64,000 nt of DNA from Fibrobacteria bacterium. GTDB lineage: Bacteria; Fibrobacterota; Fibrobacteria; UBA11236. Below the pieces are notes generated by a model. The model searched no databases, had not been told where the DNA came from, and was given only the letters and a program-made list of their open reading frames with translations. Positions 12,704-53,659 of this stretch are shown in pieces; position 1 is the stretch's first letter, and every line of letters begins with the position of its first letter. The position numbers and the translations under genes were made by a program. Where the stretch lies: assembly GCA_043732185.1 (NCBI GenBank), contig JAYTHY010000006.1, positions 1 to 64,000 of the forward strand. The letters run 5' to 3'.

Positions 12704-13378
12704 TCAGTGAATCTTTAGCACAATCCTACGATTCTTAGCCTGGTTGGCGGGAATGGAAATGCCCTCTGAATCTGTATTTGCAGACTTGGGCTTGGTGTCC
12801 GCATAACCTGCCGCTTTAAGCCGATCGGAAGTAATGCCTTTGCTAATCATGTACTTGACAATATTGGTGGCGCGTGAAACCGACAGTTCCCAATTTGATG
12901 GGAATTGAAGCGTCTTGATTGGGATATTGTCGGTATGCCCTTCAATATCCACTGCGAATTTGTAATACTCGATATTTTTGATGGCGTCCGTCACGATATC
13001 GATGTTTTCTCGTGCAGAAGGACCGATATCTGCTTTGCCGGGATCATAGATTGCTGAACTTGAGAATTCAAGTACGATACCTTCACGGGTCAAATCTATA
13101 CTGACTTCACCTCGCTTACGCTGTCCGGCAAGTAAAGAATCCAAATCGTGCTTGATTTCACCTAGAGGGGTTTTGACATCCTTATCCTTGCCAATATCGG
13201 TCCGCAAACCTTTTTTCATTTGTTCAAAGAGTACTGGGTCGACATGGGAGACGGATAACATCGTTAAAAAGAAGGCCATTAGCAGCGTCACGAGATCGGC
13301 ATAACTCATTAGCCAATCTTCTTCCGAGCCGTGCTGTTCGTTTACCCGATGGCGATTGGGATGTGCGTTGAGGGCCAT
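12704..13378 (-). CDS. motB: MotB-family stator B subunit with OmpA-like peptidoglycan-binding domain
   Basis: WLMSYADLVTLLMAFF (critical Asp kept), plug-like helix, IEGHTDNIPI, SNWELSVSRA, GYADTKP and NRRI motifs. Confidence 0.92.
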   Translation of the reverse strand: MALNAHPNRHRVNEQHGSEEDWLMSYADLVTLLMAFFLTMLSVSHVDPVLFEQMKKGLRTDIGKDKDVKTPLGEIKHDLDSLLAGQRKRGEVSIDLTREGIVLEFSSSAIYDPGKADIGPSARENIDIVTDAIKNIEYYKFAVDIEGHTDNIPIKTLQFPSNWELSVSRATNIVKYMISKGITSDRLKAAGYADTKPKSANTDSEGISIPANQAKNRRIVLKIH

Positions 13379-13393
13379 GGAACACTACCCTGA

Positions 13394-14209
13394 TTACTTT
13401 TTTGCCGCGTCCTTGGTGGACCCGGCCTTTTTTTCGAACATGGAATACTGTTCTTTACGATCAAGGTAGGAATTGAGTTTATCCTGTATGTACATGGCCT
13501 GTTTCTTATCCATGATCATGACTAAAGCCTCCAGTATCAGATAATGGCGAAATCGCTCGATGCTCAATGTCTGCCGTATTTTGGTAGATGCTGGCATAAA
13601 AACAAACCGAGCGAAAAGTAAGCCGTACAATGTGGCAGTCAATGCAAGCGAAAGCCCTGGACCCAATTTGGATGGGTCTTCCAATTTTCCGAGCATGACG
13701 ATAAGGCCCATCAATGTGCCGACCAATCCGAATGCGGGCGTCATCGAACCCATAGTGGTTAAAATGGTGCTTTCCTGCAGATGCCGGTAATAGTGTTCTT
13801 CGATGCTGGTGGTTCCCAATTCTCGGATTTCATCGGATTTATAACCGGTACTTGCCAAGTTGAAAATGTATTTGATGAACTCGTCCTTGCTCGACTTTGC
13901 AATAGTCTCATAGGTAGCCTGTCCATCCGACTGAAATTTTTTCTGCCAGTCGATTGCCGTTTTCACGTCTGCAATCAAGGTTTTTGAAGAAATGCTCTGT
14001 TTGAGGAATATCCTCAAGGTGGCAATAAAAGTGCTCCAGACGTACTTGAAACGGAATCCGATAAAGGTAACTGTAACGGTACCTCCGAAAACTATCGCCA
14101 AACTAGATGGACTTAGGAATACCTGCCAATCCTTGGTTTCATGCAAAATACCAGCAGCGATGATTATAAACCCAAATATGACTCCGAATACGGTGGAAAA
14201 AGAAATCAT
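13394..14209 (-). CDS. motA: MotA/PomA-family stator A subunit
   Basis: SLAIVFGGT, PAFGLVGTLMGLIVML and LGPGLSLALTATLYG motifs; full MotA length including the cytoplasmic loop. Confidence 0.9.
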   Translation of the reverse strand: MISFSTVFGVIFGFIIIAAGILHETKDWQVFLSPSSLAIVFGGTVTVTFIGFRFKYVWSTFIATLRIFLKQSISSKTLIADVKTAIDWQKKFQSDGQATYETIAKSSKDEFIKYIFNLASTGYKSDEIRELGTTSIEEHYYRHLQESTILTTMGSMTPAFGLVGTLMGLIVMLGKLEDPSKLGPGLSLALTATLYGLLFARFVFMPASTKIRQTLSIERFRHYLILEALVMIMDKKQAMYIQDKLNSYLDRKEQYSMFEKKAGSTKDAAKK

Positions 14210-14215
14210 AGCTGT

Positions 14216-15463
14216 CTATTTCCCCTTAGCCTTCTTGGTCGGAAAAACGGGCTTGCTCGGAGCATCTGCAGCGGCTGGTGGAACAGTAGGCACAGGTTTT
14301 TTTGCTTCAACCGATGCCTCAGGTTTCGTTTGTTCCTGAGGTTCGACTGACGCCTTTTCTGGAACAGGCGCAGCAGGTTTTTCAGCAGCGATATCGGGTG
14401 CAGGCTGCGGAGGAGGTGTAGGAGATGCAGATGGAGCTGGGGCTATGACTGGAGATGGAACCGCCATAGCTGGTTGTGCTATGGCAGGTGGACTAGAATT
14501 CTTTGGGGAACCGAGCCTACCCTCGCTATCGAATTTTTGAATTGACGTATTGTCGCCAGCGGCTTCTTCTGGAAAGGGTGCTCCATCTGCAACCTCAGGT
14601 CCGGCCGCTTCAATGACTGATGCGGGGGGTCGTGGAGCTGGGCGGGAAATTAGTGGTCTGGGAGCGGGTGAACCGCGTCCTCCTGGAGTGCGGGTGCGCT
14701 GCAGCATGTTTTCCACCGCTGGCATATCGGGATTTAGCCGCAGTGCGTCTTCCCAATGTCTTCGAGCCAAACCATTTTTTCCCATCATATAACTAATGCT
14801 TCCCGCCAAGGCATGACCTTCCGCCGTTGGCTGGGCGTCCAATGACTGCCGAACCATTGCCATGGCTTCCGGATATCGTTTTTGATAAAAAAGTTCCTGG
14901 GCTTTGCGGATCCCGGTTAAGACCTTGCTTGTAACATCCTCGTTACTGGACTGATCTTGATTGGCAGACTCCTCTTCAGAATCAGGCTTTGCTGCAGGCG
15001 GCTGGTGCTTTTCGGTTTTCGAAGACGTCTTCTCCGGTTTTTGTTCTTGTTTGGGTTCAGGCTTTTGTTCTTCCTGTTCTTGATCCTCCTGACCAGACTG
15101 GGCTGCTTGCTCCTGATTTCTATTTTTGGATGTAGGCTTACCGCGCTCCTTCTGAGGCGGAGGCTGCATAGCGGCCGCATCTTCAGCATTAGCCGGTCGT
15201 CCCGACATTTCCAGATAAACTTCCGTGGAACCAAGATCGATGCTCATGTGGGCGTCAGTGGTTTTATTTGCAAAGTGGAAATTGATTCCACCGGCCCCTT
15301 TTTCACCAGCTTGGTTTTGCGTTTCAACTTTCGTGGGTTCCCTTGTTTGCGCGCGCTCCGGAGGCGGAGCAGAGCCTCCACAACCCAGGAGAAGGGCGGC
15401 GGTCAGGCCAGCGACACCGGAGAACCGGGTACTAGAACGTATAGTGTAAGAAGGTAAGTTCAT
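14216..15463 (-). CDS. TPR-containing lipoprotein with Gln/Glu-rich and Pro/Ala-rich disordered regions
   Basis: Lipobox LLLGC; TPR-like helices KAQELFYQKRYPEA...ARRHWEDALRLNPD; low-complexity flanks. Confidence 0.75.
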   Translation of the reverse strand: MNLPSYTIRSSTRFSGVAGLTAALLLGCGGSAPPPERAQTREPTKVETQNQAGEKGAGGINFHFANKTTDAHMSIDLGSTEVYLEMSGRPANAEDAAAMQPPPQKERGKPTSKNRNQEQAAQSGQEDQEQEEQKPEPKQEQKPEKTSSKTEKHQPPAAKPDSEEESANQDQSSNEDVTSKVLTGIRKAQELFYQKRYPEAMAMVRQSLDAQPTAEGHALAGSISYMMGKNGLARRHWEDALRLNPDMPAVENMLQRTRTPGGRGSPAPRPLISRPAPRPPASVIEAAGPEVADGAPFPEEAAGDNTSIQKFDSEGRLGSPKNSSPPAIAQPAMAVPSPVIAPAPSASPTPPPQPAPDIAAEKPAAPVPEKASVEPQEQTKPEASVEAKKPVPTVPPAAADAPSKPVFPTKKAKGK

Positions 15464-16562
15464 AGGCAATAGGTTCCAGTGTCAAGAATCGTTCTGAATC
15501 TAGGCCCGTGCCTTGAATTTTTTTATTCAGCGGCAAAAACAAAATGCCCCCACCTAAAGTGAAATGTCGGCTGACACGGGATTTATATCCTACTGTGAGT
15601 GCGCTAATATGGCCGCGATTTAAAAAAGGAATGAACTCCTGCACGCCGATATAAGTCCCCAGCCAATAACCTAGATCGGGATTGGACTTCCGGAAAAATA
15701 TGCCCAGCATCTCAATGCCGAACTTTGCGGTTTGCATGTTGAAGTTGACGGCTAGACTATCCGGGCCACCAGAGCCATCCATGAATCCGTATCCCAAGGT
15801 CACTGAAAAAATCAGCCATTTGTCCGGGGTAACCGCTTCGCTAACCGTACCTTCAATGGCGTATTGGGTTAGGGACAAAGACTCAAGTGTGTCCAAAAGT
15901 GGTACACCATTGGTATCCGCTCGCGTGGTACTGGGTACGATTCCCCTGTGGATGGGAAACATTCGGACAGAAGAGGACGCGCTCCAATCCAGGTTCCAAA
16001 TATCCGGCTTTTTTTCATTTGGTCCCGCTACAAAACTCGCGGACCAAACCACTTCGCCCGTGCGATGCCGGAACACTTTGAGGTTTAAGATGACATCATT
16101 GTCTGCGCTCTTGGAACAAGATCCTTCGATGAATCCATCCACACGGAGTTTGTCCCCAAGTCTCCACAAGTCTTCCATGGAGGGAAGCGTATTGGAAAAT
16201 TTAAAAGAACTGTCGGTGGAAACCACCCGAAAAGTTCGGAGCTCCGGTGATGTCACAACGGTCTTACGGCCATCGCGCCGAAAGACCTCTTCCACCTGCG
16301 CCTGTATATAGCGCGATAGGCCGGGACTGAATTCAGCGGGATCAATTTTGATTTGGGATAGAGCAATGCGATCCATGCTGGGAGGAATATCCCCCATGGC
16401 CTTGGAAAGCCTCTGCATGATTTCAGCGATTTGTCGCAATCCTGTGGAACTGGGGGCGAAAGGATCAATGGCTGGAGCGGAGGCTGCTGAGACAGGTCCA
16501 GGATGGATACTGAGCAGCAGCGCCAGTATTACTCCGGCGCGTGCGGGGGTAATCCCCATCAT
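15432..16562 (-). CDS. Exported protein: CsgG/FlgO/LpoB-like alpha/beta domain plus putative outer-membrane beta-barrel
   Basis: Signal peptide (VSA-A); RLGDKLRVDGFIEGS...ILNLKVFRHRTGEVVWS pattern of the CsgG/TolB_N fold; alternating beta-strands ending YELTFLHYTF (terminal Phe). Confidence 0.6.
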   Translation of the reverse strand: MMGITPARAGVILALLLSIHPGPVSAASAPAIDPFAPSSTGLRQIAEIMQRLSKAMGDIPPSMDRIALSQIKIDPAEFSPGLSRYIQAQVEEVFRRDGRKTVVTSPELRTFRVVSTDSSFKFSNTLPSMEDLWRLGDKLRVDGFIEGSCSKSADNDVILNLKVFRHRTGEVVWSASFVAGPNEKKPDIWNLDWSASSSVRMFPIHRGIVPSTTRADTNGVPLLDTLESLSLTQYAIEGTVSEAVTPDKWLIFSVTLGYGFMDGSGGPDSLAVNFNMQTAKFGIEMLGIFFRKSNPDLGYWLGTYIGVQEFIPFLNRGHISALTVGYKSRVSRHFTLGGGILFLPLNKKIQGTGLDSERFLTLEPIAYELTFLHYTF

Positions 16563-18412
16563 GCCGGCCTCCCTGAATGTTTAATCTCATCGCGAATCCG
16601 ACTAAGCAGGCGACGCTGGGCAACTTCCGACTCCTTTGGTGTCACGTCCTTTGATCCTTCGATTCCTCCGGAGACCATCATCTGCATACGCTCCGGGAGC
16701 AAAGCCAAAATTTTAGTACGAATGGCTTCATCCACATGGATCAAGGCCAGGATCAGAGTTTCCTGGTCCAGGTTTTGGAGCACTCCGGACAGGAATTTAT
16801 CCGGCAATCCCGCAACTTCCGGCAGGGTAACGTACCGATTACGTATCTTTTCACCCAAACCCAAATCCATTTCGGAAATGGAATGGACGTAGTTGAATTG
16901 AAGATGAAGGGGAAGGCTGTCGATCAGTTCCAGAATGCTGTCTACGCCATCGGCGGCCACAAACCGCATATTTCCAACGTCCAATGCCTTAAGGGAAAGT
17001 CGATCGGCAATTTCTTTATACACATTGAGAGGGATATGGTCGATATTGCCCATTGCCAGCAGCAGTTTACCCCGGCTGTCCGGATCTACCTTTTGCAGAA
17101 TGCCACTGGCCATTTCTCCCTTAAGCTGCGCCATGACCAGTCCGGAAATGCCTTGGGATTCGTCGCGTAAAATATGCATGATCTGTTGCTCATTCAATTG
17201 ATGCAAGAATCCAAATAAATCCTTGTATTGATCCCCATTCGCAGATCCATTCGATAAATTCTGGAACTCGCGTTTGAATTCTTTGTATACGATGAGAAGT
17301 TCTTCCGGTGACGGAGCCTCGCCGGAATTCAAGTGGACTTCGAGCATCTGACTCAGTTCACGGCCAATCTCCGGAGTAAGCACACTCATGAGACGTGCAT
17401 CCAAACTCGCCACCATGGCGGCGGAATCACGTAGCCCTTTGTCCGGCTCGCGCTGGATCCAGCTTTTAATGATTTGACCACAGTGTTTTGGACTGCCCAC
17501 AAAACAGTTCAGTAAAAACGGACGGAAAGCTCCAAGTTCGGAGGGCTGGGCTTTGGCAGCTAGTCCTTTGCCAGTCTCAGCAGCAGGTTTTTGCGCCTCG
17601 GTGGGCAATGGCAGTATTGGTTGCGGCCCCTTGTCCTGTCTGTCCCGACCGCTCGCACCTACGATGGCGCGCGATACCATCCATACACAGGCTAGGATCA
17701 GCAAGCAGATTAGCAGAAGGGGAATCAAAGAAGGCAAGTGATCCATATAGGCGCTGAATGGGTTGGCAGCCGGTTTCTCTTTATCTCCGTATTTGTTCCT
17801 TCCGTCACGATCACTATTCGAATCGCTCTTGCTCTGTTGTGGCTGAGAGGCTAAAGGCGGAGGCGTTTCAGCAGGTTTGCGATAGGTGGACAAGGATCGG
17901 TTGTCCCGCGGAAATACGCCCTCATGCACCGCAACTCGGTCCCCGCGCAATTCATCTAAATGACAGGCCATACCAATTAGGTTGCGAATGAAATCCACAT
18001 CCTTATCGGAATAACCTGTATCCACCAATACGTCCAAGGTAACCGATTGGATGCCCCCGGATGTTTGCTGTTTGGTCTCTTTATCCGCAGCAGGTGGTTT
18101 CGGCTGCATCGTTTCTGGAAGAAAGGGAAGGCCCGGAAGTTGCGGTTGTGATTCCGTAGTTGCAGGCAATGCATCCTCATTGGACACATCAACTTCCGGC
18201 GAGGGCTCTGTTTCTACTTTTGCTTTGACAAGGAAGGTGGCTTCCTCGTAGTAACGCGATAAAGTCCGTGCAGCTAGGCTTTCATAATATTGTGCTAATT
18301 TTCCGGCTTGCTCTTCCTTACCAAAAACCTGCCGCGCGCCCTGTGCCATTGCGGATCCGGTAGCAAGACCCAACATCAACGTCATGGAAAATAATCTTAG
18401 AATTGTTAACAT
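16559..18412 (-). CDS. FliF C-terminal (RBM3-TM-C tail) / FliG fusion protein with signal peptide
   Basis: Signal peptide MLTILRLF...SAMA|Q; FliF-like GIQSVTLDVLVD...IRNLIGMACHLDELRGDRVAV, TM and PKHCGQIIKSWI; FliG-like AAMVASL, LFGFLHQL..ILRDE, DGVDSILELI, EKIRNRYVTL and TKILALLPER. Start ATG 18412 (ORF track starts at 18451). Confidence 0.8.
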   Translation of the reverse strand: MLTILRLFSMTLMLGLATGSAMAQGARQVFGKEEQAGKLAQYYESLAARTLSRYYEEATFLVKAKVETEPSPEVDVSNEDALPATTESQPQLPGLPFLPETMQPKPPAADKETKQQTSGGIQSVTLDVLVDTGYSDKDVDFIRNLIGMACHLDELRGDRVAVHEGVFPRDNRSLSTYRKPAETPPPLASQPQQSKSDSNSDRDGRNKYGDKEKPAANPFSAYMDHLPSLIPLLLICLLILACVWMVSRAIVGASGRDRQDKGPQPILPLPTEAQKPAAETGKGLAAKAQPSELGAFRPFLLNCFVGSPKHCGQIIKSWIQREPDKGLRDSAAMVASLDARLMSVLTPEIGRELSQMLEVHLNSGEAPSPEELLIVYKEFKREFQNLSNGSANGDQYKDLFGFLHQLNEQQIMHILRDESQGISGLVMAQLKGEMASGILQKVDPDSRGKLLLAMGNIDHIPLNVYKEIADRLSLKALDVGNMRFVAADGVDSILELIDSLPLHLQFNYVHSISEMDLGLGEKIRNRYVTLPEVAGLPDKFLSGVLQNLDQETLILALIHVDEAIRTKILALLPERMQMMVSGGIEGSKDVTPKESEVAQRRLLSRIRDEIKHSGRPA

Positions 18413-18576
18413 CGCACGGCAATTATACAACGAGGCATTTGTAGAGCGCATGTTTTTCTACGCAATTATTTTAAAATTATTTTGGCTAATCCTATTTGTT
18501 TCCTAAAGCTTCACGCCTTTCCTTCCGATAACTCTTTGTTGGACAGTAGAACCCAACTGATGCCTGGGAGAAGGAA

Positions 18577-21517: not shown

Positions 21518-22621
21518 TCAAAGATTTATAGCCTTTGCTAAATCCTTATAGACGCGACCCACGCGTTCTACTTGGCCCTTGGCTGGAAATCTTTCAAAAA
21601 AGCCTTCGCAGCGGAAGGACTTCTTGAGTTCCGTCCAAGGCTGCAAGAGTTCTATCCAGCGTTTGACGCGGCCTGTAGATACCGAATCTTTGTCGGAAAG
21701 ATCGGCGCAGATACGCACCAATGCTTTTAGGGTAACCGGTTTGGTGACCATATAATTTCCATTGCCCCAGGCATCCCCCCAAACATTGGCACAGGCCTTG
21801 AGAAAATCCCGAAGAATTTCGTAATAAAATTCTGCTTGGTGCATGGGAGAAAGATCTTCCTTGAAGTCCCATTCCGATTTGACCCAACGGTTCACTTCAT
21901 TGAAAAGTTCAGCCTGGAGAATCCATTTTTCGGCCTTGCTTTTTCCACCGAGCCGGTTGATGCGATATTGAAGCGGGCTGTCGTCATTGCCATAAAGGCA
22001 TTCCACCACGCGCGCGCAACAGCGCTTATCCGGTGAGGCAAAAGAGACTTTTTCGTAAAGGTCGACCAGATGGCTTTTGTTGATACGGGTCGGCGTGGAG
22101 TTGATGATGACGAACATCTCCGTGGCAAAATCCTCACTTCGACCATCGAATATAATGCAGGGGACGTTGATGGTCGCGGCTTCAGCGGGGCGTTCCCGGA
22201 AGTAGAAATGCAAGGCAGCCAAGCGGTGCTGGCCGTCGATGATCAGATATTTATCGTCGGGTTCTTGTAAATTGCCAACGCTGTCCTGTTCCGGAAGGGC
22301 TCGAAAACGGAGTTTTTCCGGTGTAAAAAGCAAAATTGTACCTGGAATAGGGGGCTGGGTACTGGCGGTTTCGTAAAAATTGCGAATGGCCCTGATCTTC
22401 TCCCGCGCCATAGTGCGCTGAAAAGCTTTATCAGAATGTTCGATTTTTGAGATGAAACGGGCGATATCGTCTTCGGCCTTGGGTGCCTCTGCCGCGATTG
22501 GAGTGCCTTCATCATAGAAACGCGTGCTGAATCGCACCTTTTCTAGAAGTGCTTTCGCCGGATACGCGGCGAAAAAGAAAAGTGCGTCTTTTTGGCGGAC
22601 CTGGGTAGCAAGCATAGTCAT
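21518..22621 (-). CDS. DGQHR domain protein (DndB/ParB-like)
   Basis: FQR, IIDGQHRLAAL and FVIINSTP motifs. Confidence 0.88.
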   Translation of the reverse strand: MTMLATQVRQKDALFFFAAYPAKALLEKVRFSTRFYDEGTPIAAEAPKAEDDIARFISKIEHSDKAFQRTMAREKIRAIRNFYETASTQPPIPGTILLFTPEKLRFRALPEQDSVGNLQEPDDKYLIIDGQHRLAALHFYFRERPAEAATINVPCIIFDGRSEDFATEMFVIINSTPTRINKSHLVDLYEKVSFASPDKRCCARVVECLYGNDDSPLQYRINRLGGKSKAEKWILQAELFNEVNRWVKSEWDFKEDLSPMHQAEFYYEILRDFLKACANVWGDAWGNGNYMVTKPVTLKALVRICADLSDKDSVSTGRVKRWIELLQPWTELKKSFRCEGFFERFPAKGQVERVGRVYKDLAKAINL

Positions 22622-30452: not shown

Positions 30453-31190
30453 TCACTCCGATTTCATTTTCAAGATCCGGAACATGGGCAACAAGTGCTT
30501 GCGCAACTCTGCAACCACCGCTGGCAAATCACCCATGGGTACGGTCAGCCGGCTTTTTTTGACGAAAGCGTTCCACTGATTTTGTTTGAGTGGATCTGCG
30601 GAAAAATCCTTCATCCTGGAATTGGCCATATCGAGCACGACCATGGCTTGAAATTTTTCGGCGATGGCGGTATACGGCGGATAAGCCAATAGCACCGGTG
30701 CCGGGCCATCCAACAAGGTTGGAAAGGTGATTCGCTCAGGCTCCGGTGTAATCGCATCCCCGAATCCTACATCCACTTGCAAATCAATCCGAGATTTGCC
30801 CAGCAAGGCCCGAAGTAAAATACGCACCCCTTGGTAATCCTGATCTTCCTTGATGCGATTGACGCGCACCGTCTCCGCTTGGAAAACCAGCCCATCCACA
30901 GCCAAGGTATCGGGTATGCAGAGTTCACGAAAAAGTTGGGCGATGGCTTCCAAATCCGAAGAACCTACGCCCAGCAAATCCACATCTCGGGTCGTACGAA
31001 AAGCATGCCCGAACCAAACGAGGAAAAGGCTGGCCCCTTTAAGGACAAAGCGGCTGCCAAGTTCGGACTGGGAGAGACGGTACAGCAGGCGCTCAACGCC
31101 ATAACGAGCGAGAACGAAATTGTATTCTTCTTGATGGGTTTTGCTGAAATTTAGGAGACGCTGGGCCACGGAATGGGAAATATCGGTCAT
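30453..31190 (-). CDS. abiEii: AbiEii-family nucleotidyltransferase toxin with an apparent in-frame internal deletion
   Basis: ERLLYRL, FVLKGA, RTTRDVD, QVDVGFGD, AEK and NSRMKD motifs. ATG 31190 overlaps the antitoxin stop. Confidence 0.85.
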   Translation of the reverse strand: MTDISHSVAQRLLNFSKTHQEEYNFVLARYGVERLLYRLSQSELGSRFVLKGASLFLVWFGHAFRTTRDVDLLGVGSSDLEAIAQLFRELCIPDTLAVDGLVFQAETVRVNRIKEDQDYQGVRILLRALLGKSRIDLQVDVGFGDAITPEPERITFPTLLDGPAPVLLAYPPYTAIAEKFQAMVVLDMANSRMKDFSADPLKQNQWNAFVKKSRLTVPMGDLPAVVAELRKHLLPMFRILKMKSE

Positions 31191-31789
31191 GACGCCGCTT
31201 CCATTTCCAAATACGGGCGCATGATTTTTTCCATGCGACAAACCTTGGCCATTTTCACTATTTCGGCCCGACTGGCTTTCTTGGATTTTAGTGCTTCCAA
31301 CAGGGCTTCCATCGCCACATCGAGTCCCACCTTGTTCCTCATTTTGAACAGGTCCGCTACGGTCTTGGCCACGCTGTATACTCGCAAGGTGACGCCGTCG
31401 ACTTTATATTTTTCAATACCCTGCGTAAAAGCAGCTCCAGAAAAACGAGCGACCTTCAAGGATGGATACGCTAGTTTGGGTGCTCGGGCAAGGCCCTCAA
31501 CTGCGATCCAAACCTGATGGGGAAGTTGGGATGTCAACCCATGGTAATTCAAAGCCGAGAGCAGACAAAGCACCACCCTAGGTGCACGCAGAAATACCTC
31601 GGTATAACTGGGATGGGTTAGTATCGGAGCCTTCGCAACCTGATACACTCCTCGCGTGAGGCGTTCGACACTTCCCGTTTTGATCAGGTACTGCAAGTCC
31701 TGCCTACGGAACCCTGCTGTCTCCAGTTCACGCACTCGGCAGGGTCCGTGTTTTTTCAAAAAGGAAACGGTATCTTTAAGCTGGCTCAT
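31187..31789 (-). CDS. abiEi: AbiEi-family antitoxin / transcriptional regulator (type IV TA)
   Basis: wHTH with RLTRGVY, CLLSALNYHGLT and YSVAKTVADLFKMRNKVG motifs. Confidence 0.9.
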   Translation of the reverse strand: MSQLKDTVSFLKKHGPCRVRELETAGFRRQDLQYLIKTGSVERLTRGVYQVAKAPILTHPSYTEVFLRAPRVVLCLLSALNYHGLTSQLPHQVWIAVEGLARAPKLAYPSLKVARFSGAAFTQGIEKYKVDGVTLRVYSVAKTVADLFKMRNKVGLDVAMEALLEALKSKKASRAEIVKMAKVCRMEKIMRPYLEMEAAS

Positions 31790-45624: not shown

Positions 45625-47268
45625 CTATTTTTCTTTTTTGAAAAGCCCGTCGAAGAATCCTTTTTTCTTCTCATTGGGATGCGGTAGCTTTTTGGTTTTG
45701 AAGGAATCGTTTTTGGCCATGTCCTCATAGGTGGTCACAATACCGCTGCGATCCACCTCACCAGGCACACCGCCACCACCGGAAGGCGTTGGCCCAGCCG
45801 TGGAAGGAGTAGGCGGCGTCGCTATCGGAAGGGGAGGAGGAGTCGGACTTGAAACCCGTTCACCAAAGGGTGTGGTCGGGAACGCGGCTCCAGGTTGTCC
45901 AGGAAATACTGGCATGGAGCTGGGCATAGGGCTTGGAGAGCCGCCAAATGGGTTCCCGGGGTTGGGGCTAGATTGTCCACCAAAATTTCCCTGGCCGAAA
46001 TTCGGCTGGGCGGGTGGCGCCATTCCCGGCGCCGGAGGTCGATTGGGAGCATTGCCAAAGCCAGGCATACCGGGTGGTAAACCTTGGTCTCCTGGTCGCC
46101 CACCCAAATTAAAAGCCGGTGGAGGCTGGCCAAAGCTTTGAATGCCAGGGCTGGTACCAATGGGATCTAAGGGTTTGGGTGTCAAGCTTGGCCCACCCGC
46201 CGACGGTGTGCCTGGAAATGCTGATTTTGGGGTTTGAAAGCCCTGTAGAAAAGGTGAAACTGGAATGCCAGAGGGTGGCGGTGTGAATCCACTTGGCGGT
46301 GGCGTAAAACCTGCAGGCCCATCCGATTTTGGAGGAAAGGCAGGTGGCGTGCCTGGGCTTTTACTGGCAAAAGGATTGTTGGCGGCAAAAGGATTATTAG
46401 CAGCGAAAGGATTCGCGCTCGGCGCGGCAAGCGGGTTGGCTTGTGGCGCACTGGTTGGGGGCCGAAAGCCGGGATCCGGTGGTCGGGATACTGGGTTCTG
46501 TGGCCCTGGAAAGGAAGGCCGAGCGGCGGGTCCACCAAAGCCAGGAAAAGGTTGGGGCGCGCTTATGGGAGGACGCATAGCAGGCGCCGCGGGCGAAGCT
46601 TGTTGTGTGGGCTTGGCAGCCGAGGCGCCTAACGAGGCCGCATCACCTGGACGAGCGGTGCGTCGAGTCCCTTGAAAGCCCGCGTACTTGGCATTGAACT
46701 TATCGATTACGTATTTTCCAATTCCCTTTAAAGTTGTAAAAACACCCACACCTGTTGCAGCAACTGCTTCATAATGAGGCAGTTTTAATTTATTCAGCAA
46801 TTCATTGAGCTGATCCACGGAATACACATTGGGTAAATCGCGTTTGTTGTACTGAAGCACCAAGGGAATGTTTTCGATGGAATGTCCATATTCCCTTAGG
46901 TTCTCTTGCAGGTTGGCAAAACTTTCCAGGTTTTCCTGAAGCTTATCCACTTGTGAGTCCACTACAAAAACCACGCCATCCACCCCGCGTAGCACAAGTT
47001 TTCGGGTGGCATTGTAATAGACCTGGCCTGGCACGGTATACAATTGGAACTTGGTCGAAAAGCCCTTAATGGATCCCAAATCGAGGGGAAGAAAATCGAA
47101 AAATAGAGTCCGGTCCGTTTCCGTGGCCAAGGACACCATTTCACTTTTATCCTTGTCCGGTATTTTTCGATGAATAATCTGTAAATTAGTGGTTTTTCCG
47201 CTCAGCCCAGGACCGTAATAGACGATCTTGCAGCTGATTTCCCGGGTTGCGTAATTAATAGATGCCAC
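45625..47268 (-). CDS. mglA: MglA small GTPase with long Pro-rich C-terminal extension
   Basis: KIVYYGPGLSGKTTN, TETDRTLFFD, TVPGQ and NKRD motifs; about 350 aa tail rich in P/G/F. Confidence 0.93.
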   Translation of the reverse strand: MASINYATREISCKIVYYGPGLSGKTTNLQIIHRKIPDKDKSEMVSLATETDRTLFFDFLPLDLGSIKGFSTKFQLYTVPGQVYYNATRKLVLRGVDGVVFVVDSQVDKLQENLESFANLQENLREYGHSIENIPLVLQYNKRDLPNVYSVDQLNELLNKLKLPHYEAVAATGVGVFTTLKGIGKYVIDKFNAKYAGFQGTRRTARPGDAASLGASAAKPTQQASPAAPAMRPPISAPQPFPGFGGPAARPSFPGPQNPVSRPPDPGFRPPTSAPQANPLAAPSANPFAANNPFAANNPFASKSPGTPPAFPPKSDGPAGFTPPPSGFTPPPSGIPVSPFLQGFQTPKSAFPGTPSAGGPSLTPKPLDPIGTSPGIQSFGQPPPAFNLGGRPGDQGLPPGMPGFGNAPNRPPAPGMAPPAQPNFGQGNFGGQSSPNPGNPFGGSPSPMPSSMPVFPGQPGAAFPTTPFGERVSSPTPPPLPIATPPTPSTAGPTPSGGGGVPGEVDRSGIVTTYEDMAKNDSFKTKKLPHPNEKKKGFFDGLFKKEK

Positions 47269-47624: not shown

Positions 47625-48049
47625 CTCCGTATATAGCCACGTTCATGTAAGAGGCGGGCAATGGCAAGGGCCCCGCGGTCTATCCGAAATTTGAATAAAT
47701 CATAACTTCCCCGGGTTCCGGCGACGACGAGAAAGAATAAGTCCAATTGTCCCAAATTGACTATCAAGTGAAAATGATGTTCATCAAACGACACAGAATG
47801 TTCCAATGGGCCCATCCCCAGCATTCTGTATTGAGCCAACGATTCCTGAAAACTGGCTAGAAAATAAGGGGATTCGATAAAATGGTTTTGCTGGCTCTCC
47901 TCTCCCCAGGCCACGACCAACCCTTCGCGACTGTAGAGAATGGCTCCGGTAATACCCTTCACCAGACTTAAGTATCCAAGGCATCGGTCCAAATCCTGTG
48001 ACTCAACGAGCTTGTTGATGTCAGTGGGTGCCAGATCGAGTTTACTCAT
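47621..48049 (-). CDS. Divergent Roadblock/LC7-like protein
   Basis: GITGAILYSREGLVVA and LGMGPLE..V pattern; ATGA overlap with the next gene. Confidence 0.6.
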   Translation of the reverse strand: MSKLDLAPTDINKLVESQDLDRCLGYLSLVKGITGAILYSREGLVVAWGEESQQNHFIESPYFLASFQESLAQYRMLGMGPLEHSVSFDEHHFHLIVNLGQLDLFFLVVAGTRGSYDLFKFRIDRGALAIARLLHERGYIRS

Positions 48050-48920
48050 GAGTCAAATTACCTACTGCGTGAGGCCCCATATTGGCGCGCACTTTGGCCG
48101 AAGCGGCCTGTTTTTGAAAAATATTTTCCGCTCGTACCATGGTCAGCAGGGATTGGTTGATGTTTCCAGTTACAAGCTCGAGACATTCTGCGCCCATATG
48201 CAGAGAGGTCACCGTCAAATTCTGGAAGGAAAAACAGATCTTGTGAATTTCTCCACCCTCCAACGCATCACACGTATTGGCAATGGCACCCGGAAGAATT
48301 TGTGGCAGTAAGTTGACCAAGGAGGCGAGATTCGAATTTCGGCTGGTGGACTTGTATCGGTTTTGCGCCTGATTTCCAAGAACCAATGCCTGCGTATTGT
48401 CATCCATCACTAAACTTTGATAGATACCAAAATCTCCCTCACCGAGCTCGAAGGCCGCCATATTAGGTGTGGAAATTGCCGGAGGAACCGGAAGAATGCT
48501 GGCTGCCGCCGAAAAAGAGGCCACTGGAGTGACTGCACCCAATGAGTTCGCGGGAACTTCTGATGGCCGTCCTTGCCATGCCATCCATTCTAAATAGATA
48601 CTCGATTCGAGCAGTGACAAAGCCACCAAATCGTTGGGATGCCGGTGCAGGTGCGAAACCAGCTTCTGTTTCACCTGTTGGTGTTCACCGGTTTCAATCC
48701 CGATTTGGGTCTGTAAGTAAAAAACCATATCCTTGAATCGCGTAGTTTGCTTGCCTTCCAAACTTTGCAAAACATGATTGGCCAAATCGTATTTCTTGCG
48801 CCGAATAAGCAGACATGCATACGCTAGAGTACTCGAACTTTGAATAAAACTCTGGCATATCACATCCCCCATGAGGACGCTTTCGGCGGTTTTAACTTCG
48901 TGCTGGGTTGCCGTGGACAT
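48042..48920 (-). CDS. TPR-like N-terminal domain plus Roadblock-like C-terminal domain protein
   Basis: Helical repeat ending HPNDLVALSLL, Pro/Ala linker, then LEGGEIHKICF...LELVT. Confidence 0.5.
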   Translation of the reverse strand: MSTATQHEVKTAESVLMGDVICQSFIQSSSTLAYACLLIRRKKYDLANHVLQSLEGKQTTRFKDMVFYLQTQIGIETGEHQQVKQKLVSHLHRHPNDLVALSLLESSIYLEWMAWQGRPSEVPANSLGAVTPVASFSAAASILPVPPAISTPNMAAFELGEGDFGIYQSLVMDDNTQALVLGNQAQNRYKSTSRNSNLASLVNLLPQILPGAIANTCDALEGGEIHKICFSFQNLTVTSLHMGAECLELVTGNINQSLLTMVRAENIFQKQAASAKVRANMGPHAVGNLTHE

Positions 48921-48928
48921 TCAAATTC

Positions 48929-50020
48929 TCATTTAAGTTGGTAAGTTTTTTTGGTGATTTTCTTATACACCGGTTTATTTCCAATCGGGCCGCTGACCTC
49001 GTTTGGAACCAATGCCCCCTCTTCAACCAGCACTTTTAGAGTCGCAGGTAGATTGTTTTGCCTATCCGCATGATCCACCAGTAGCACTTCAATATTATCG
49101 TACGCAAAATGATTCGCTATTTTCATTGCATACCCTCCCTGTGAGCTCTGCTTGGAAGTCGATGAAAGGTCTAGGCTGAGGAACCAATAGGAAACGAACC
49201 GCAAGACCAGGGCCAGCAGCAAAAACATGAAAGCCGTACCCAGTACCATGGCCGTTTTCCTATCCTTTTCATTTTGGGGATCGGCAGCGGCAGGCAAATC
49301 GATTTCCTCGACCGAATCCGCCACTGGGGCGACAAACCCACCCTCCCATAAATTTACAAGGCATTCGGAGAGTCGGAAAGAGCCAAAGGGAACTTGTTTG
49401 GCGATTTGTGCCACGCTCTTCCGTCCATCAACCAGCCCCAACACCAAATAGTCCCAGCCTAATTGGTCGCCGTCATAGGTTTTTTCCATGAGGTTGAAAA
49501 CGACTTTGGGATCGGGTATGGACTCCTTAAGTCGCGGCCACTCATCTATGCGCCGCATTCCCTCCATACAGGCAAATTCTGTGGAAATATTCAGTTGCAT
49601 GGAAATGGAGGATTGCGCCTTTAGTCCGGTCCCAAAATCATATTGCCCTTTGAGCCATCCAAACAGTTCACAAACCATGTCCTCGGAAATGATCTGTAGC
49701 CATTCTTTCTTGTCCTCATCGGTCAAATGACCTTTGGCGGCCAAGGTTGTCAGCAAGGGACGATTCATTTCTCTGGACATGGACTCCAGTTCATGCATCT
49801 CATCCTTTTCCACCTTGCCGGAGGCGATCAGCATTTCTTTGATAATATCCTCGGGCATCTCGCCATTCACTCTAACTCCATTGACATTGCCAGCGGAGAT
49901 GAAAATTTCAGCCTTTTCTTTCCCGTTAACCAAATTGAGCACACCGGACTTGCGCTGTTGCAACAATAGTTGCAGGACATCGGCCAGAGAGAAGTCTTTT
50001 AAATCCCCGGAAAGCTTCAT
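48929..50020 (-). CDS. DUF4388 (PatA_N) membrane protein
   Basis: LSGDLKDFSLADVLQLL..QRKSGVL, LFGWLKG and MEGMRRIDEW motifs; one TM. Confidence 0.88.
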   Translation of the reverse strand: MKLSGDLKDFSLADVLQLLLQQRKSGVLNLVNGKEKAEIFISAGNVNGVRVNGEMPEDIIKEMLIASGKVEKDEMHELESMSREMNRPLLTTLAAKGHLTDEDKKEWLQIISEDMVCELFGWLKGQYDFGTGLKAQSSISMQLNISTEFACMEGMRRIDEWPRLKESIPDPKVVFNLMEKTYDGDQLGWDYLVLGLVDGRKSVAQIAKQVPFGSFRLSECLVNLWEGGFVAPVADSVEEIDLPAAADPQNEKDRKTAMVLGTAFMFLLLALVLRFVSYWFLSLDLSSTSKQSSQGGYAMKIANHFAYDNIEVLLVDHADRQNNLPATLKVLVEEGALVPNEVSGPIGNKPVYKKITKKTYQLK

Positions 50021-52236
50021 CGAAAAGTCTCCTTTTCGACGGCAGCGGAAGCAGCCATCAGTTCACCGACATTGACGGGAGTGCGGAGGAGCTTGATATT
50101 GAACAAAAGATAAAATAGCGCGATAGGTAGCCAAGGCAACCAGTGGAAAGGGCCAATCACAAAGCTGGGATACTCCATGAGGAGGTGGTTCACTTGCCAA
50201 AGGCCGCCCATCAGAAATCCTGTTGCCAGAATCCAAACAAACCGCCCCGTGCCCAAACCTAAAAACAAAAGTCCGGTCCCTGGCCAAAGCGAATTAAGCA
50301 CGGCTCCGATACGCAAGCGTTGTACGGTCGAGCGCATGCGCATACGTTTTACCATTTCCATTTTCACCCGGTTATCATGAATTCCGGAAACTGTTTTAAA
50401 ACATGTGTGACAATGCACGCCTTTACGACAAAGACGGCACATGACCCGGTTACAAATTTTGCAGTCGAACAAATCCTTCCCATGGCTATGTTGAGAATGA
50501 TGTCGAAAGCGGAAATGCAGCAACAAGGCGACGATACCGACCATGGCGAGCAGCCAACCACCCATAATTTCATAAATTCCGGTACTGACCCACACACCTA
50601 GAAAATCCAATCCAATCAAAGAATTCCACGCTGCGGTCCAAGCCAACCGATTTCTCAACATGGGATCCATCGCCTTACGTGTGGCCGGATACTCAGGAAA
50701 ATATTCGTCGTTGTCCTTCAAAAACTGGTTGACCCATTGTGGGTCCACCTCGGCTGCTCGATCCAGGTATTTTTTATGCCGAGTCGAATTGTTGGAATAC
50801 AATTCCGCCTGACTGGAGTTGAACCATGTTTCCACCATGTTGGGCGCAATTCTACGGGCTTCTGTGAAAGCGGTGGACGCGCCGGTGTAATCAAATCCCA
50901 CCATAGCCAGATTCCCATTATTGAGAAGCACATACGGATTGGAAGGTTCAATTTGAGACGCCAAGCGGCCAAATTCTCCTGCCTTAATATATTCTCCTTG
51001 CTTTTTATAGGTCAAGGAATAGGCCAGGCTGCGATAAAGACTGTCTTCCTGGGTTTTGGCTTTGAAGGCTTCCATTCGCGTGATTAGGGGTGCTTCATAT
51101 CCGCGATTATAGGCGCGGTGATAAAGATTGACTCCCAGGGTATCATCCAGGTGACGCACCATGGTTTGCTCCCACATAAAGAGGAATGGGATCAAGGCCA
51201 GACCCGTCATCAGGACTTTTAGAAAAGTTTTTTCTTGATTGGTCACATGTTTCCAGAGCAGCATGGTAAAGGCCAGGCCCAATGCCACATACCCCAATCC
51301 ACCTATCATCAGGCTTAAAGGAAGGAGGGCCAAAGCGAAATATCGGATCCAGATTTCCACTTGATTCGGAAGCCGCTCGACCCATAAATGGGTGATGCGC
51401 GAAAAGTATTTTCCGAAGAGAACCAGCAAGGCAACTGCGCCAAAAAAGGCCAGGCCCATGCGAAAGGCACGAGACATATTGACTATGAAAAGAGATTGGC
51501 TGTCGTAATATTGCAGCAATCTGGCAGCCTCGGTGAGCCGCGTCCAAGCGGCGCTCAAATCCCAATTGAGCGGGGGCTTTTCCCGGAACTCCATCTCCAT
51601 CAATATAAAAGGAACCCAAGGACAGAGCGGATCGAGCTTTCCAGCAAACTCGGCAGCCTGTCTCGCGACCAAATATAAGCCCTGGCCCATCGCCTCACGG
51701 GCACGGAGCAATTCCAGCTTCGCGAGTTCGGGAACCTTGATATAGCCTTTTTCCAGCATGTTGCGCTGAACTTCCAGTTGTAATAAATGCGCTCTTTGGT
51801 ACAGCCCGTTTTGGGTAAGAATCCTAGCCATTTCATAGTTAACGGCAATGTTACCTTTGGCCAATTGGGTTGCCATGAGGAGTTCCGTCTCGCCATTGCC
51901 AGCCTTGGTTTTGTCCAAAGCGAGACCCACGCTGAAATTGGCCCATAAATCGGCAAAGGTCGGCGCCTCCGGATTGGTCACGGCTGCAGGATGTGCTTCA
52001 CGCACATGCTGGATAAGGACCGGGAGCTCTGTCGCACTGATGGAATTGGCGAAAAGTTTTATGCTGGGGGGGAAACGTTCTTGAAAATCCCAACGCGAAA
52101 ACACGGTTTCCCGCAGCGATTCCAATACTTGAACTTGGGCCATAAGAGGAGCCGCCAGGCAAAGCAGCAGCCTGATACATCTAATAGGGTTGATCAAATC
52201 ACTCCCAATCCAGGGTGAAACAAGACAAGCCTCCAA
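50017..52236 (-). CDS. Polytopic membrane protein with TPRs and a Cys-rich zinc-finger-like motif
   Basis: TPR (NNGNL..GFDY), several TM segments, CKIC..MCRLC....HCHTC and WPGTG. Start may be TTG 52194. Confidence 0.7.
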   Translation of the reverse strand: MEACLVSPWIGSDLINPIRCIRLLLCLAAPLMAQVQVLESLRETVFSRWDFQERFPPSIKLFANSISATELPVLIQHVREAHPAAVTNPEAPTFADLWANFSVGLALDKTKAGNGETELLMATQLAKGNIAVNYEMARILTQNGLYQRAHLLQLEVQRNMLEKGYIKVPELAKLELLRAREAMGQGLYLVARQAAEFAGKLDPLCPWVPFILMEMEFREKPPLNWDLSAAWTRLTEAARLLQYYDSQSLFIVNMSRAFRMGLAFFGAVALLVLFGKYFSRITHLWVERLPNQVEIWIRYFALALLPLSLMIGGLGYVALGLAFTMLLWKHVTNQEKTFLKVLMTGLALIPFLFMWEQTMVRHLDDTLGVNLYHRAYNRGYEAPLITRMEAFKAKTQEDSLYRSLAYSLTYKKQGEYIKAGEFGRLASQIEPSNPYVLLNNGNLAMVGFDYTGASTAFTEARRIAPNMVETWFNSSQAELYSNNSTRHKKYLDRAAEVDPQWVNQFLKDNDEYFPEYPATRKAMDPMLRNRLAWTAAWNSLIGLDFLGVWVSTGIYEIMGGWLLAMVGIVALLLHFRFRHHSQHSHGKDLFDCKICNRVMCRLCRKGVHCHTCFKTVSGIHDNRVKMEMVKRMRMRSTVQRLRIGAVLNSLWPGTGLLFLGLGTGRFVWILATGFLMGGLWQVNHLLMEYPSFVIGPFHWLPWLPIALFYLLFNIKLLRTPVNVGELMAASAAVEKETFR

Positions 52237-52255: not shown

Positions 52256-53659
52256 TCAGGATTGCGCTTTTAAACCGTATCGTTCAATCTTCCTATAAAG
52301 CGTGGAAATATCCAACCCCAGAATCTTGGCTACGGTCGGTTTATGCCACTGATTTTCGGTAAGCACCCAAAAAATATAAGCCTTTTCGATGTCGTTGAGG
52401 GTCGGTGATACGCCGACCCCAAAGGCGCGTTCCCCAGCTGGCATGGAACCGGAACCTTCCATTTTCCCTGTCCGTGGCAAGGTGTGGCCCTGATCCAGTT
52501 CAGTCACTGTTGTGCTGGGCAAGTCCAGCTCCAACGTTTCAATAGATTCACTGGTACTGAAGGCAATAGCCCTCTCTACCGCATTTTCCAATTGTCGTAC
52601 ATTTCCAGGCCAGGCATAGGCTTGAATTTGCTCTAGAGCGGTTGCGGTGAAAGACTTACGGCCTCCGCTTTTTCTTTGTAAAAAATAGTTTGCGAGCAGA
52701 ATGGAATCTTCACTCCGCTCAGCCAAAGCCGGTGTATTGATACGCAGCACATTGAGCCGATAGTACAGATCTTCCCGAAATTGTCCCTGCGCTACTGCAT
52801 CCTCAAGGTTCACATTGGTCGCGGCTAAGATACGGACGTCGATTCGAGAGGAAGCTGTGCCGCCAACCTGAGTGATTTCCCGCTCCTGGATGACCCTCAA
52901 AAGCTTGACCTGAGTGCGGAGCGGCATTTCCCCGATCTCGTCCAGGAACACGGAGCCACCGTTGGCAACGGCGAATAAGCCATCCTTGTCGGCATGTGCC
53001 GAAGTAAACGATCCTTTCACATGACCGAATAATTCCGACTCCAGCAAACTCTCGGAAAGCGAAGAGCAATTGACCACTACAAATGGTTTTAAGGAACGCA
53101 AGGATTTTTGATGGATGAGCTTTGCCACCAGTTCTTTGCCGGTCCCGCTCTCCCCTGTAATGAGCACTGTGCTTTCCGAGGAGGCGATGGCGTTGATCCG
53201 GTCCTTAAGTTGGAGAAAAATCGGAGATTGACCGATTAACTCAACGCCTTGCCGTCGAATGAAGTCCTTCAGCTCACGGTTTTCAGTTTCCAGTGTCCGC
53301 GTTGCCACGGCCTTCTCGACCACTTTTCCCAAAAAAACCATTTCGAAAGGTTTGGAAATAAAATCAAATGCTCCCAGCTTTACAGCCTCAACGGCCTTTT
53401 CAACTGTCCCATAGGCAGTCATGACAACCACAGGAACCCGCGGGAAGCGGTCGAGCAGCGCCTTGACTAGGGTGAGTCCTGAACCTTGACCTAAAGCCAA
53501 ATCAACCATGGCCAATAAGGGCTCAGGGCCATCCAAGAGCTTGAGTCCGGCTTCAACGCTATGGGCGGAAACCGTCGCATACCCTTTTTTTTCGAAAAAC
53601 ACTTCTAGCAGCGCACAAAGCGATACTTCGTCATCAACGATGAGTACTTTAGGTTTCAT
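52256..53659 (-). CDS. Sigma-54-dependent response regulator (NtrC family)
   Basis: Receiver domain (IVDDE, D, KPF), GESGTGKE, ESELFGH, GSFTSA, WPGNVRQL and Fis-type HTH. Confidence 0.95.
   Translation of the reverse strand: MKPKVLIVDDEVSLCALLEVFFEKKGYATVSAHSVEAGLKLLDGPEPLLAMVDLALGQGSGLTLVKALLDRFPRVPVVVMTAYGTVEKAVEAVKLGAFDFISKPFEMVFLGKVVEKAVATRTLETENRELKDFIRRQGVELIGQSPIFLQLKDRINAIASSESTVLITGESGTGKELVAKLIHQKSLRSLKPFVVVNCSSLSESLLESELFGHVKGSFTSAHADKDGLFAVANGGSVFLDEIGEMPLRTQVKLLRVIQEREITQVGGTASSRIDVRILAATNVNLEDAVAQGQFREDLYYRLNVLRINTPALAERSEDSILLANYFLQRKSGGRKSFTATALEQIQAYAWPGNVRQLENAVERAIAFSTSESIETLELDLPSTTVTELDQGHTLPRTGKMEGSGSMPAGERAFGVGVSPTLNDIEKAYIFWVLTENQWHKPTVAKILGLDISTLYRKIERYGLKAQS

Follow-up and report, generated by a model that had tools for sequence, protein, structure and literature searches.

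A 64,000-nt stretch of a Fibrobacteria bacterium genome (assembly GCA_043732185.1, contig JAYTHY010000006.1, positions 1 to 64,000; the whole stretch is referred to here as the window) encodes a member of the MglA family of polarity GTPases that carries an unusually long C-terminal extension. The protein is built from an N-terminal G domain, a long Pro/Gly/Ala/Phe-rich linker that is predicted to be disordered, and a conserved 47-residue C-terminal module whose last part resembles the membrane-targeting sequence of MinD. The gene is followed by mglB and preceded by an array of genes that is conserved among related genomes (Table 1). On balance, we consider it somewhat probable that the terminal peptide places this GTPase at the inner membrane, and the evidence for and against this reading is set out below.

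The G domain was compared with MglA proteins of known structure. Residues 1-191 aligned to residues 1-191 of Myxococcus xanthus MglA (5ymx_A) with an E value of 5.7e-77 and no gaps of note, and matches were also obtained to M. xanthus MglA 6h17 and 6hjh (E ~6e-77) and to the Thermus thermophilus protein 3t12 (E 7e-71). The P-loop (GPGLSGKT), the DRTLFFD motif with Arg53, the TVPGQ motif with Gln82 and the NKRD motif are all intact, so that the MglA domain reported in a preliminary description of the sequence was borne out. No second MglA match was found in the 4.46-Mb, 139-contig genome, and the tailed mglA is thus a single-copy gene. In the available text of the survey of Wuichet & Sogaard-Andersen 2014, the defining traits of group-1 MglA are TVPGQ as the G3 motif and an intrinsic Arg adjacent to the conserved Thr of G2 (PMC4316618). 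The tailed protein has the homologous G domain, both of these features and a coupled MglB partner gene; at 547 aa (amino acids) it exceeds the single-domain size limit of that survey (≤240 aa), a cut that is operational and not biological. Judged by its sequence, it is a bona fide group-1 MglA with a complete set of catalytic motifs.

Table 1. Features of the tailed mglA gene and its conserved neighbours (positions in the window)
Feature	Position	Strand	Remarks
Tailed mglA gene	45625..47268	(-)	547 codons plus stop; GTG start
MglA G domain, residues 1-192	46693..47268	(-)	P-loop, Arg53, TVPGQ with Gln82, NKRD
Disordered Pro/Gly/Ala/Phe-rich linker (predicted), residues 193-500	45769..46692	(-)	AlphaFold2 model, composition, dN
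18-nt tandem repeat encoding NPFAAN	46366..46413	(-)	2.7 copies; repeat analysis
Three-part C-terminal module, residues 501-547	45628..45768	(-)	SGIVTTYEDM, then FKTKKLPHP, then KKKGFFDGLFKKEK
Terminal cationic amphipathic peptide KKKGFFDGLFKKEK, residues 534-547	45628..45669	(-)	Putative membrane-targeting helix
mglB, Roadblock/LC7 GTPase-activating protein (GAP), 161 aa	45137..45622	(-)	Starts 2 nt after the mglA stop
Roadblock/LC7 protein, 113 aa	47283..47624	(-)	Just upstream of mglA
Roadblock-like protein, 142 aa	47621..48049	(-)	Pfam MAPKK1_Int
292-aa protein, no known family	48042..48920	(-)	Operon-conserved
DUF4388 (PATAN) protein	48929..50020	(-)	One hydrophobic span, ~254-285
739-aa polytopic protein, TPR-like region	50017..52236	(-)	Upstream of the DUF4388 gene; conserved
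Sigma-54-dependent response regulator	52256..53659	(-)	Head of the conserved array

The C-terminal module was characterized from an alignment of 22 termini (alignment A2), which also formed the basis of a 52-position module profile. In this alignment, sub-motif 1 has the form hydrophobic-T-[TS]-[YV]-acidic (GIVTTYED or MYFTSVDTD), sub-motif 2 is a basic-Pro stretch (FKTKKLPHP or KKPVKRPVNPK) and sub-motif 3 is the amphipathic end. Every complete locus reads from the G domain into the module without a change of frame, and the number of non-synonymous substitutions per site (dN) in the module relative to other members of the family is 0.08-0.18, against 0.59-0.68 for the linker. The 22 closest complete homologues (P0002-P0027 minus P0020, P0021, P0023 and P0025) all end K-G-[FL]-F-D-G-[LF]-F, and two equally complete exceptions, P0021 and P0025, end GFFGGLF and GLFGGLF. 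P0020 (910 aa) and P0023 (425 aa) have G domains that are 92-94% identical and ends that are unrelated, with a Robl_LC7 domain in P0020; both look like frameshifted or mis-assembled read-through of the low-complexity tail into mglB. In the other class of the phylum, which we take to be Chitinivibrionia, homologues end Q-K-G-F-L-S-K-[FL]-F-N-K and carry the source labels Fibrobacter sp., Chitinivibrionales and Chitinispirillaceae. Among the 120 best long matches, the amphipathic pattern was found at the end of 69 and variants of it in 5, while 29 ended ...PTRRMP..., 5 ended ...LRPYxPK and 12 had other ends.

The pattern of the last residues was tabulated over 139 distinct termini. Relative to the conserved Gly (position 0, Gly in 115), Lys occupies -1 in 111 termini, Phe occupies +1 in 123, Phe or Leu +2 in 128, Leu or Phe +5 in 133, Phe +6 in 133, and Lys or Arg +8 in 127. 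The regular expression by which these termini were selected required hydrophobic residues at +1, +2, +5 and +6, so only the identity of the residue is informative at those four positions. The two positions that separate the hydrophobic pairs vary freely (S, D, G, K, N or R), including the exchange of Asp for Lys. The distance from the amphipathic core to the C-terminus is 2-10 residues, and the net charge over the final 20 aa has a median of +3.

In order to establish where else the module occurs, the profile was run against 1.84 billion cluster representatives, which gave 86 matches at E ≤ 0.001, 73 of them with the whole module at the extreme C-terminus. Twenty-two of the 23 whole-module proteins of at least 440 aa carry TVPGQ, and the 23rd (P0175, 452 aa) is an N-terminally truncated call; the 50 shorter whole-module proteins lack TVPGQ and look like partial gene calls. 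A Pfam scan of 32 whole-module proteins without TVPGQ (134-429 aa, plus the cut call P0175) matched no family. The remaining 13 profile matches comprise four proteins that are variants of this end or fragments of such tails and nine unrelated proteins (four with Sel1 repeats, one with a C2 domain, one with sub-threshold matches to four families and three with no family), and eight of these nine are repeated partial matches. Within the source genome, one of 59,091 frames was matched (74 bits), and the next best had an E value of 0.71. By these measures the module is exclusive to MglA, strongly conserved and under clear purifying selection.

The distribution of the tail and of the module was then followed across the phylum. 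MglA was found in 245 of 296 Fibrobacterota genomes, nearly always in open frames of 300-850 aa (~311-352 aa in the largest genus), and long MglA tails are thus a phylum-wide trait. The module profile matched 80 of the 296 genomes (a count that takes in the unpublished genome G254), with one copy in each, in two classes; in the genomes for which MglA rows were listed, the match and MglA shared a contig and an open frame. By family, the module is present in 19 of 31 genomes of the source genome's own family (f1, the source genome itself left out), in the single genome of f3 and in 59 of the 80 genomes of families f11-f18, which make up the other class. It is present in none of the 151 genomes of f6, the 12 of f8 or the 6 of f2, three lineages with long-tailed MglA. 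In the largest genus of f6, presumably Fibrobacter, MglA was found in 100 of 101 genomes and the module in none. The alternative ends are ...DSYPTRRMPLGPGQ in f8 and ...DDIELRPYxPKxK in Fibrobacter-type loci, where the tail is short (~120-150 aa), ends ...DDEIVLRPYKPKDK and lacks the amphipathic module. Because it is present in two classes, the distribution suggests that the module is ancestral and was replaced several times. Genus g6 of the source genome's family stands apart from this pattern in that 10 of its 12 genomes (2.0-2.7 Mb, completeness 74-100%) gave no MglA match at E ≤ 1e-30, whereas the remaining two did; this may represent gene loss in a lineage with reduced genomes.

The terminal peptide was compared with the membrane-targeting sequence of MinD, which binds the membrane through a C-terminal amphipathic helix according to the accessible part of PMC8155659. 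The E. coli K-12 MinD record ends EEEKKGFLKRLFGG, and KKGFLKRLF of that protein and KKGFFDGLF of the MglA tail are identical at 7 of 9 positions. Both have the same hydrophobic spacing (i, i+1, i+4, i+5), a Gly cap and flanking Lys residues, and both lie 2-5 residues from the C-terminus. The best 9-residue window has a hydrophobic moment of 0.663 (H 0.48) in the MglA tail and 0.616 (H 0.44) in MinD (KGFLKRLFG). When the module was folded alone in AlphaFold2 with its own alignment, helices were predicted at residues 514-524 and 538-546, and the latter, which has a single hydrophobic face with flanking basic residues, lies in the best-scored block (predicted local distance difference test, pLDDT, 76). 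The protein ends ...GLFKKEK and its tail is without Cys, so it has no CAAX box. No true MinD was found over the cut-off in the source genome, where the best match reached 70.7 bits against a threshold of 212.9. In its predicted physicochemical properties the end peptide is equivalent to the MinD sequence, and we infer by analogy with MinD that it binds the membrane, together with the strength and the purpose of that binding.

These results bear directly on the preliminary description, in which the tail was said to end in a MinD-like membrane-targeting helix and conservation of the last 14 aa was proposed as one of the checks. The terminal motif proved to be conserved, in the 80 genomes counted above, so that the refuting outcome named there, a motif that is not conserved, did not occur; the resemblance to MinD held for residue identity, for the moment of the 9-residue window and for the helix in the module-only model; membrane binding itself stays at the level of analogy. 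The conserved unit turned out to be larger than had been proposed, since the last 14 aa are conserved as the third part of the 47-residue module. The amphipathicity check gave a divided answer, with a 9-residue moment similar to that of MinD and a 14-residue moment that falls within the range of shuffled sequences.

Several observations weigh against direct membrane anchoring. The hydrophobic moment of the 14-residue peptide was reached by 3438 of 10,000 shuffles and is not above chance, and what distinguishes the end motif from chance, to judge from its sequence, is its conservation and not its moment. In the full-length model pLDDT rises slightly over the last 17 residues (~58-60), and no helix forms at the end. 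A single copy of the E. coli MinD motif is described as too weak for significant membrane binding, so that dimerization is needed, and in MinD an ATP-dependent dimer supplies the second copy (PMC8155659, accessible part); no such dimer is known for the tailed MglA, and MglA is described as monomeric in the available text of PMC4316618. Because MinD needs its dimer and MglA is monomeric, one copy of the motif may bind only weakly or transiently, unless the neighbouring Lys residues, clustering or partner proteins add avidity. Hydrophobic conservation on one side of a helix is equally consistent with binding to protein and with binding to lipid. Finally, because the lineages f6, f8 and f2 have long-tailed MglA without the amphipathic end, the anchor is dispensable or replaceable.

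The linker between the G domain and the module was examined by composition, structure prediction and substitution rates. The 356-aa tail consists of 23.9% Pro, 13.5% Gly, 11% Ala, 8.7% Ser and 7.6% Phe, with only 22 charged residues among the 311 that precede its last 45, and it contains a GFTPPPS unit twice in tandem in addition to the NPFAAN repeat; the low-complexity tail with repeated NPF(AAN) and GFTPPPS units was correctly recognized in the preliminary description. In the full-length AlphaFold2 model, which was built with a 74-sequence alignment, the G domain is folded, mean pLDDT is 38-56 in each 10-residue block from 201 to 530 and no secondary structure follows residue 199. Residues 200-547 are coil and the tail docks nowhere on the G domain; the disorder prediction that had been suggested as a further check supported a long disordered tail. 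In comparisons with two close relatives, whose overall identity is 98% and 90%, the linker had a dN/dS (ratio of non-synonymous to synonymous substitution rates) of 0.15 and 0.23, and the G domain showed zero amino-acid changes. Against more distant members of the family, the linker dN of 0.59-0.68 was obtained in six of eight pairs and that of the G domain was 0.03-0.05, the linker evolving ~15 times faster. In the most distant pair (L013) dN was 0.085 for the G domain, 0.258 for the last 47 residues and 0.657 for the linker. With a linker that is constrained at the level of dN/dS and a reading frame that is kept from G domain to module wherever the locus is complete, the tail is, by these estimates, coding and under selection. 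Across 41 tails of this type, length ranges over 250-527 aa, while composition is held at 20-30% Pro, 9-24% Gly, 6.4-8.9% Phe and 6.5-11.5% charged residues. The linker, as modelled and as compared among relatives, is without fixed structure and drifts rapidly in sequence and length while its composition is kept.

This preserved composition raises the possibility that the linker acts on its own account, as a Phe/Pro/Gly chain of stickers and spacers that self-associates into a condensate at the pole or membrane and forms its own polar scaffold, with the end helix serving only to nucleate it. The retention of Phe and Pro in the 41 tails despite their drift, the dN/dS of the linker as a sign of constraint and its scarcity of charges all fit this idea, which is compatible with either membrane anchoring or protein docking. 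The evidence for it is compositional; tails that end ...PTRRMP... (f8) have a median Phe content of only 2.6% (n=37), the Fibrobacter-type tails are short, and the NPFAAN repeats of the source sequence look like recent slippage. We regard a condensate of this kind as quite improbable, and of the earlier suggestion that spaced Phe residues drive condensation, the conserved Phe content stands and the condensation finds little support.

The rate of change of the linker could also be read to mean that the tail is a tolerated low-complexity expansion without a role in localization, its end being a turnover signal or a means of intramolecular regulation of the G domain. The ~15-fold difference in rate, the slippage repeats and the exchange of the end motif in several lineages agree with this. 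Long tails are nevertheless kept in most MglA-bearing genomes, the module is under purifying selection and the modelled tail does not dock on the G domain; to our knowledge, the end motif is also unlike known degrons. A non-localizing role is the least likely of the readings considered, and we give it very little credence.

The genes around mglA were annotated and compared among loci. The mglB product matched Pfam Robl_LC7 (E 1e-11) and, at 87 bits, NF052242 MglB, below the 200-bit cut-off of that family; it matched M. xanthus MglB 6h5b at E 3.4e-28 over residues 4-157 and is a full-length homologue. The 113-aa Roadblock protein is 90-99% identical across the 13 loci of the family with a whole-gene match, which makes it as conserved as the G domain and more so than MglB (78-99%), and suggests, from sequence constraint, a direct and tightly constrained partner of the GTPase. 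In the 739-aa protein, hydrophobic spans at ~14-41, 255-356 and 553-577 flank a TPR-like region (371-506), and six invariant Cys residues (C592, C595, C600, C603, C609 and C612) suggest a zinc ribbon. The order sigma-54 regulator, 739-aa TPR-like protein, DUF4388 protein, 292-aa protein, 142-aa protein, 113-aa protein, mglA, mglB defines the array, and each gene is present, where the sequence reaches, in 17 of 17 close loci (Fibrobacteria metagenome-assembled genomes). Ten of the 11 loci sampled from the other class retain the core TPR - DUF4388 - mglA - mglB, and L063 shows only mglA and mglB; with the exception of L063, a DUF4388 gene lies beside mglA in every amphipathic-end locus that reaches that far upstream. 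The genes for the two membrane proteins are not nearby in Fibrobacter-type loci. Co-loss of the end helix and the operon partners was considered as a discriminator between lipid binding and docking and was rejected, as the TPR and DUF4388 genes are still found next to mglA in f8 and f2. According to the available text of PMC4316618, PATAN domains had already been linked to MglA/MglB for some MglA genes of groups 1 and 5.

The constancy of these neighbours gives some weight to a second and equally classical interpretation of the module, namely that it is a protein-docking peptide in the manner of FtsZ, with the PATAN protein, the TPR protein or a Roadblock dimer as partner and only an indirect link to the membrane. 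A conserved unit of 47 residues with three sub-motifs exceeds what a lipid anchor needs, and sub-motif 2 survives in f8 (...PTRRMP...), where the end helix is missing and the operon partners are kept. The module is found on MglA only, whereas several proteins might be expected to carry a generic membrane tag, and one of the conserved neighbours encodes a TPR-like protein. Binding of C-terminal peptides is a classical property of TPR domains. Set against this, K-K-G-F-[FL]-x-x-[LF]-F with its flanking Lys residues nearly equals a proven lipid-binding sequence, the polar positions of the helix vary freely to the point of charge reversal, which is more usual for lipid-binding helices, and any docking partner is hypothetical. 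A complex prediction with the 52-aa module, two copies of MglB, residues 1-250 of the DUF4388 protein and residues 360-552 of the TPR protein returned a score of 0.00 and a mark of 0.32, and bears on neither interpretation. We consider docking without lipid binding possible but rather unlikely, and insertion of the end helix into the membrane remains the preferred reading.

C-terminal extensions of 70-160 aa were also observed on MglB in four loci of the other class (L060:8376-9245 (+), L071:2616-3431 (-), L062:2849-3595 (-) and L072:2459-3145 (-)). The L060 extension ends ...EYLYFTSMNYLKNKAKE...NGIFSRFFNRSKHQS (LYFTS...NGIFSRFFNR) and resembles the MglA module, with a score of only 4-7 bits against the profile. 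A generic tag shared by MglA and MglB was considered and rejected, as the L060 end fails E ≤ 1 in the locus scan, and a likeness of sub-motif 1 to an internal MglB strand was discarded at 0.4-3.8 bits.

Other motility-related genes were sought in the window and in the rest of the genome. No type IV pilus genes were found in the window; the genome outside it contains three flagellin genes and four PilT-family genes that score above the cut-off. Five genes in a row at 12704-18451 (-) encode a MotB-like protein (MotB_plug and OmpA), a MotA/ExbB-like protein, proteins of 417 and 376 aa without Pfam matches, and a 630-aa FliG-like protein with FliG_M and FliG_C at its C-terminus. The row lies away from other flagellar genes in the window, and the stator pair with its oversized FliG-like gene may belong to a separate rotary or motility device. 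By Pfam labels only, the window also carries an AbiEii/AbiEi-type toxin-antitoxin pair at 30453-31789 (-) and a DndB-like gene at 21518-22621 (-).

Taken as a whole, the tailed protein can be pictured as the genome's single MglA polarity or motility GTPase, constructed from a G domain, a disordered linker and a membrane-targeting module, and presumably switched off by the MglB GAP encoded next to it. On meeting the inner leaflet of the cytoplasmic membrane, KKGFFDGLFKK would most likely fold into a short cationic amphipathic helix, with four Phe/Leu side chains inserting and the flanking Lys residues binding anionic lipids, as in MinD. By a scaling law for disordered chains, 300 residues would span ~10-20 nm end to end, with a contour length of ~110 nm. 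The linker would thus confine the GTPase to a shell a few tens of nm below the membrane, where it might meet the PATAN/DUF4388 protein and the polytopic TPR/Cys-cluster protein of the operon at high local concentration, and sub-motifs 1 (hydrophobic-T-T/S-Y/V-acidic) and 2 (basic-Pro) would probably dock there. Support from the membrane side comes from the single-span PATAN protein and the polytopic protein, which stay beside the module across the phylum. The scheme we favour, by a narrow judgement and on analogy, has the terminal helix partitioning into the inner membrane and keeping the G domain close to it, with the upstream sub-motifs serving as docking sites there. A broader version, in which the ancestral Fibrobacterota MglA was membrane-tethered as a prokaryotic equivalent of Ras with its hypervariable region and polybasic anchor, its module both inserted into the membrane and docked on the PATAN and TPR proteins, and a linker condensate supplied its own polar scaffold without a RomR-type landmark, is improbable as a whole.

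MglA is viewed in textbooks, and treated in mechanistic work, as a small soluble Ras-like polarity switch that is recruited to the poles by its partners. A phylum-wide, leashed MglA with a MinD-like peptide would alter where one looks for the means by which bacterial polarity switches are positioned, and would give a clean prokaryotic parallel to the anchored hypervariable tails of eukaryotic Ras, Rho and Rab. Tails of 250-527 aa that share one end module also form a natural series in which the effect of tether length on a membrane-bound switch could be studied. In a literature search that left most subscription journals and supplements outside it, no membrane motif, disordered linker or conserved C-terminal module was found described on MglA; by all sequence criteria the protein belongs to the MglA family, and its C-terminal architecture appears to be undescribed. 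The tailed class lies outside the comparative picture because the main small-GTPase survey excluded sequences of more than 240 aa (PMC4316618, available text).

Among known systems, the closest are the MglA proteins of M. xanthus and T. thermophilus (5ymx, 6h17, 6hjh and 3t12), which share the G domain over residues 1-191 and an adjacent homologous mglB. Their PDB chains are 195-203 aa long and tailless, whereas the tailed protein has ~355 extra residues comprising linker and module, and its locus has mglA followed by mglB, with three further Roadblock-like genes upstream. The 313-aa protein of locus L053 is taken here, from its equal length, to be the Fibrobacter succinogenes entry among the 'Group 2' MglA-like proteins of Fremgen et al. 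2010; it differs in having a ~120-aa tail without the amphipathic module. The accessible part of that paper makes no mention of composition, disorder or a membrane motif (PMC3000849).

With MinD the likeness is one of functional analogy and not homology, as MglA is a TRAFAC Ras-like GTPase and MinD a SIMIBI ATPase; in addition, the MglA peptide ends a 300-aa linker, whereas that of MinD sits directly on the fold. In FtsZ, the GTPase domain is followed by a disordered linker of variable length and sequence and then by a conserved C-terminal peptide, to which FtsA and ZipA bind. The tailed MglA shares this plan of a nucleotide-binding domain, a biased and variable linker and a short conserved end peptide as the link (putative in MglA) to the membrane, and the pLDDT values, tail lengths and contrast in dN between linker and module given above are those of an FtsZ-like linker. 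It differs in that the FtsZ peptide binds FtsA/ZipA and not lipid, and in that FtsZ has a tubulin fold and polymerizes, in contrast to the monomeric switch MglA. Among eukaryotic GTPases, Ras and Rho carry a hypervariable region with a polybasic or lipid anchor, and Arf and Sar1 have N-terminal amphipathic helices coupled to the nucleotide state. The likeness to these lies in a Ras-superfamily GTPase whose membrane association, putative in MglA, resides in a variable basic/hydrophobic terminal extension. Unlike Ras, the tailed MglA is without a CAAX box or terminal Cys (it ends KKEK) and its extension is ~15 times longer than the Ras hypervariable region; unlike the helices of Arf and Sar1, which are N-terminal and coupled to the nucleotide state, its putative helix stands at the far C-terminal end of the chain.

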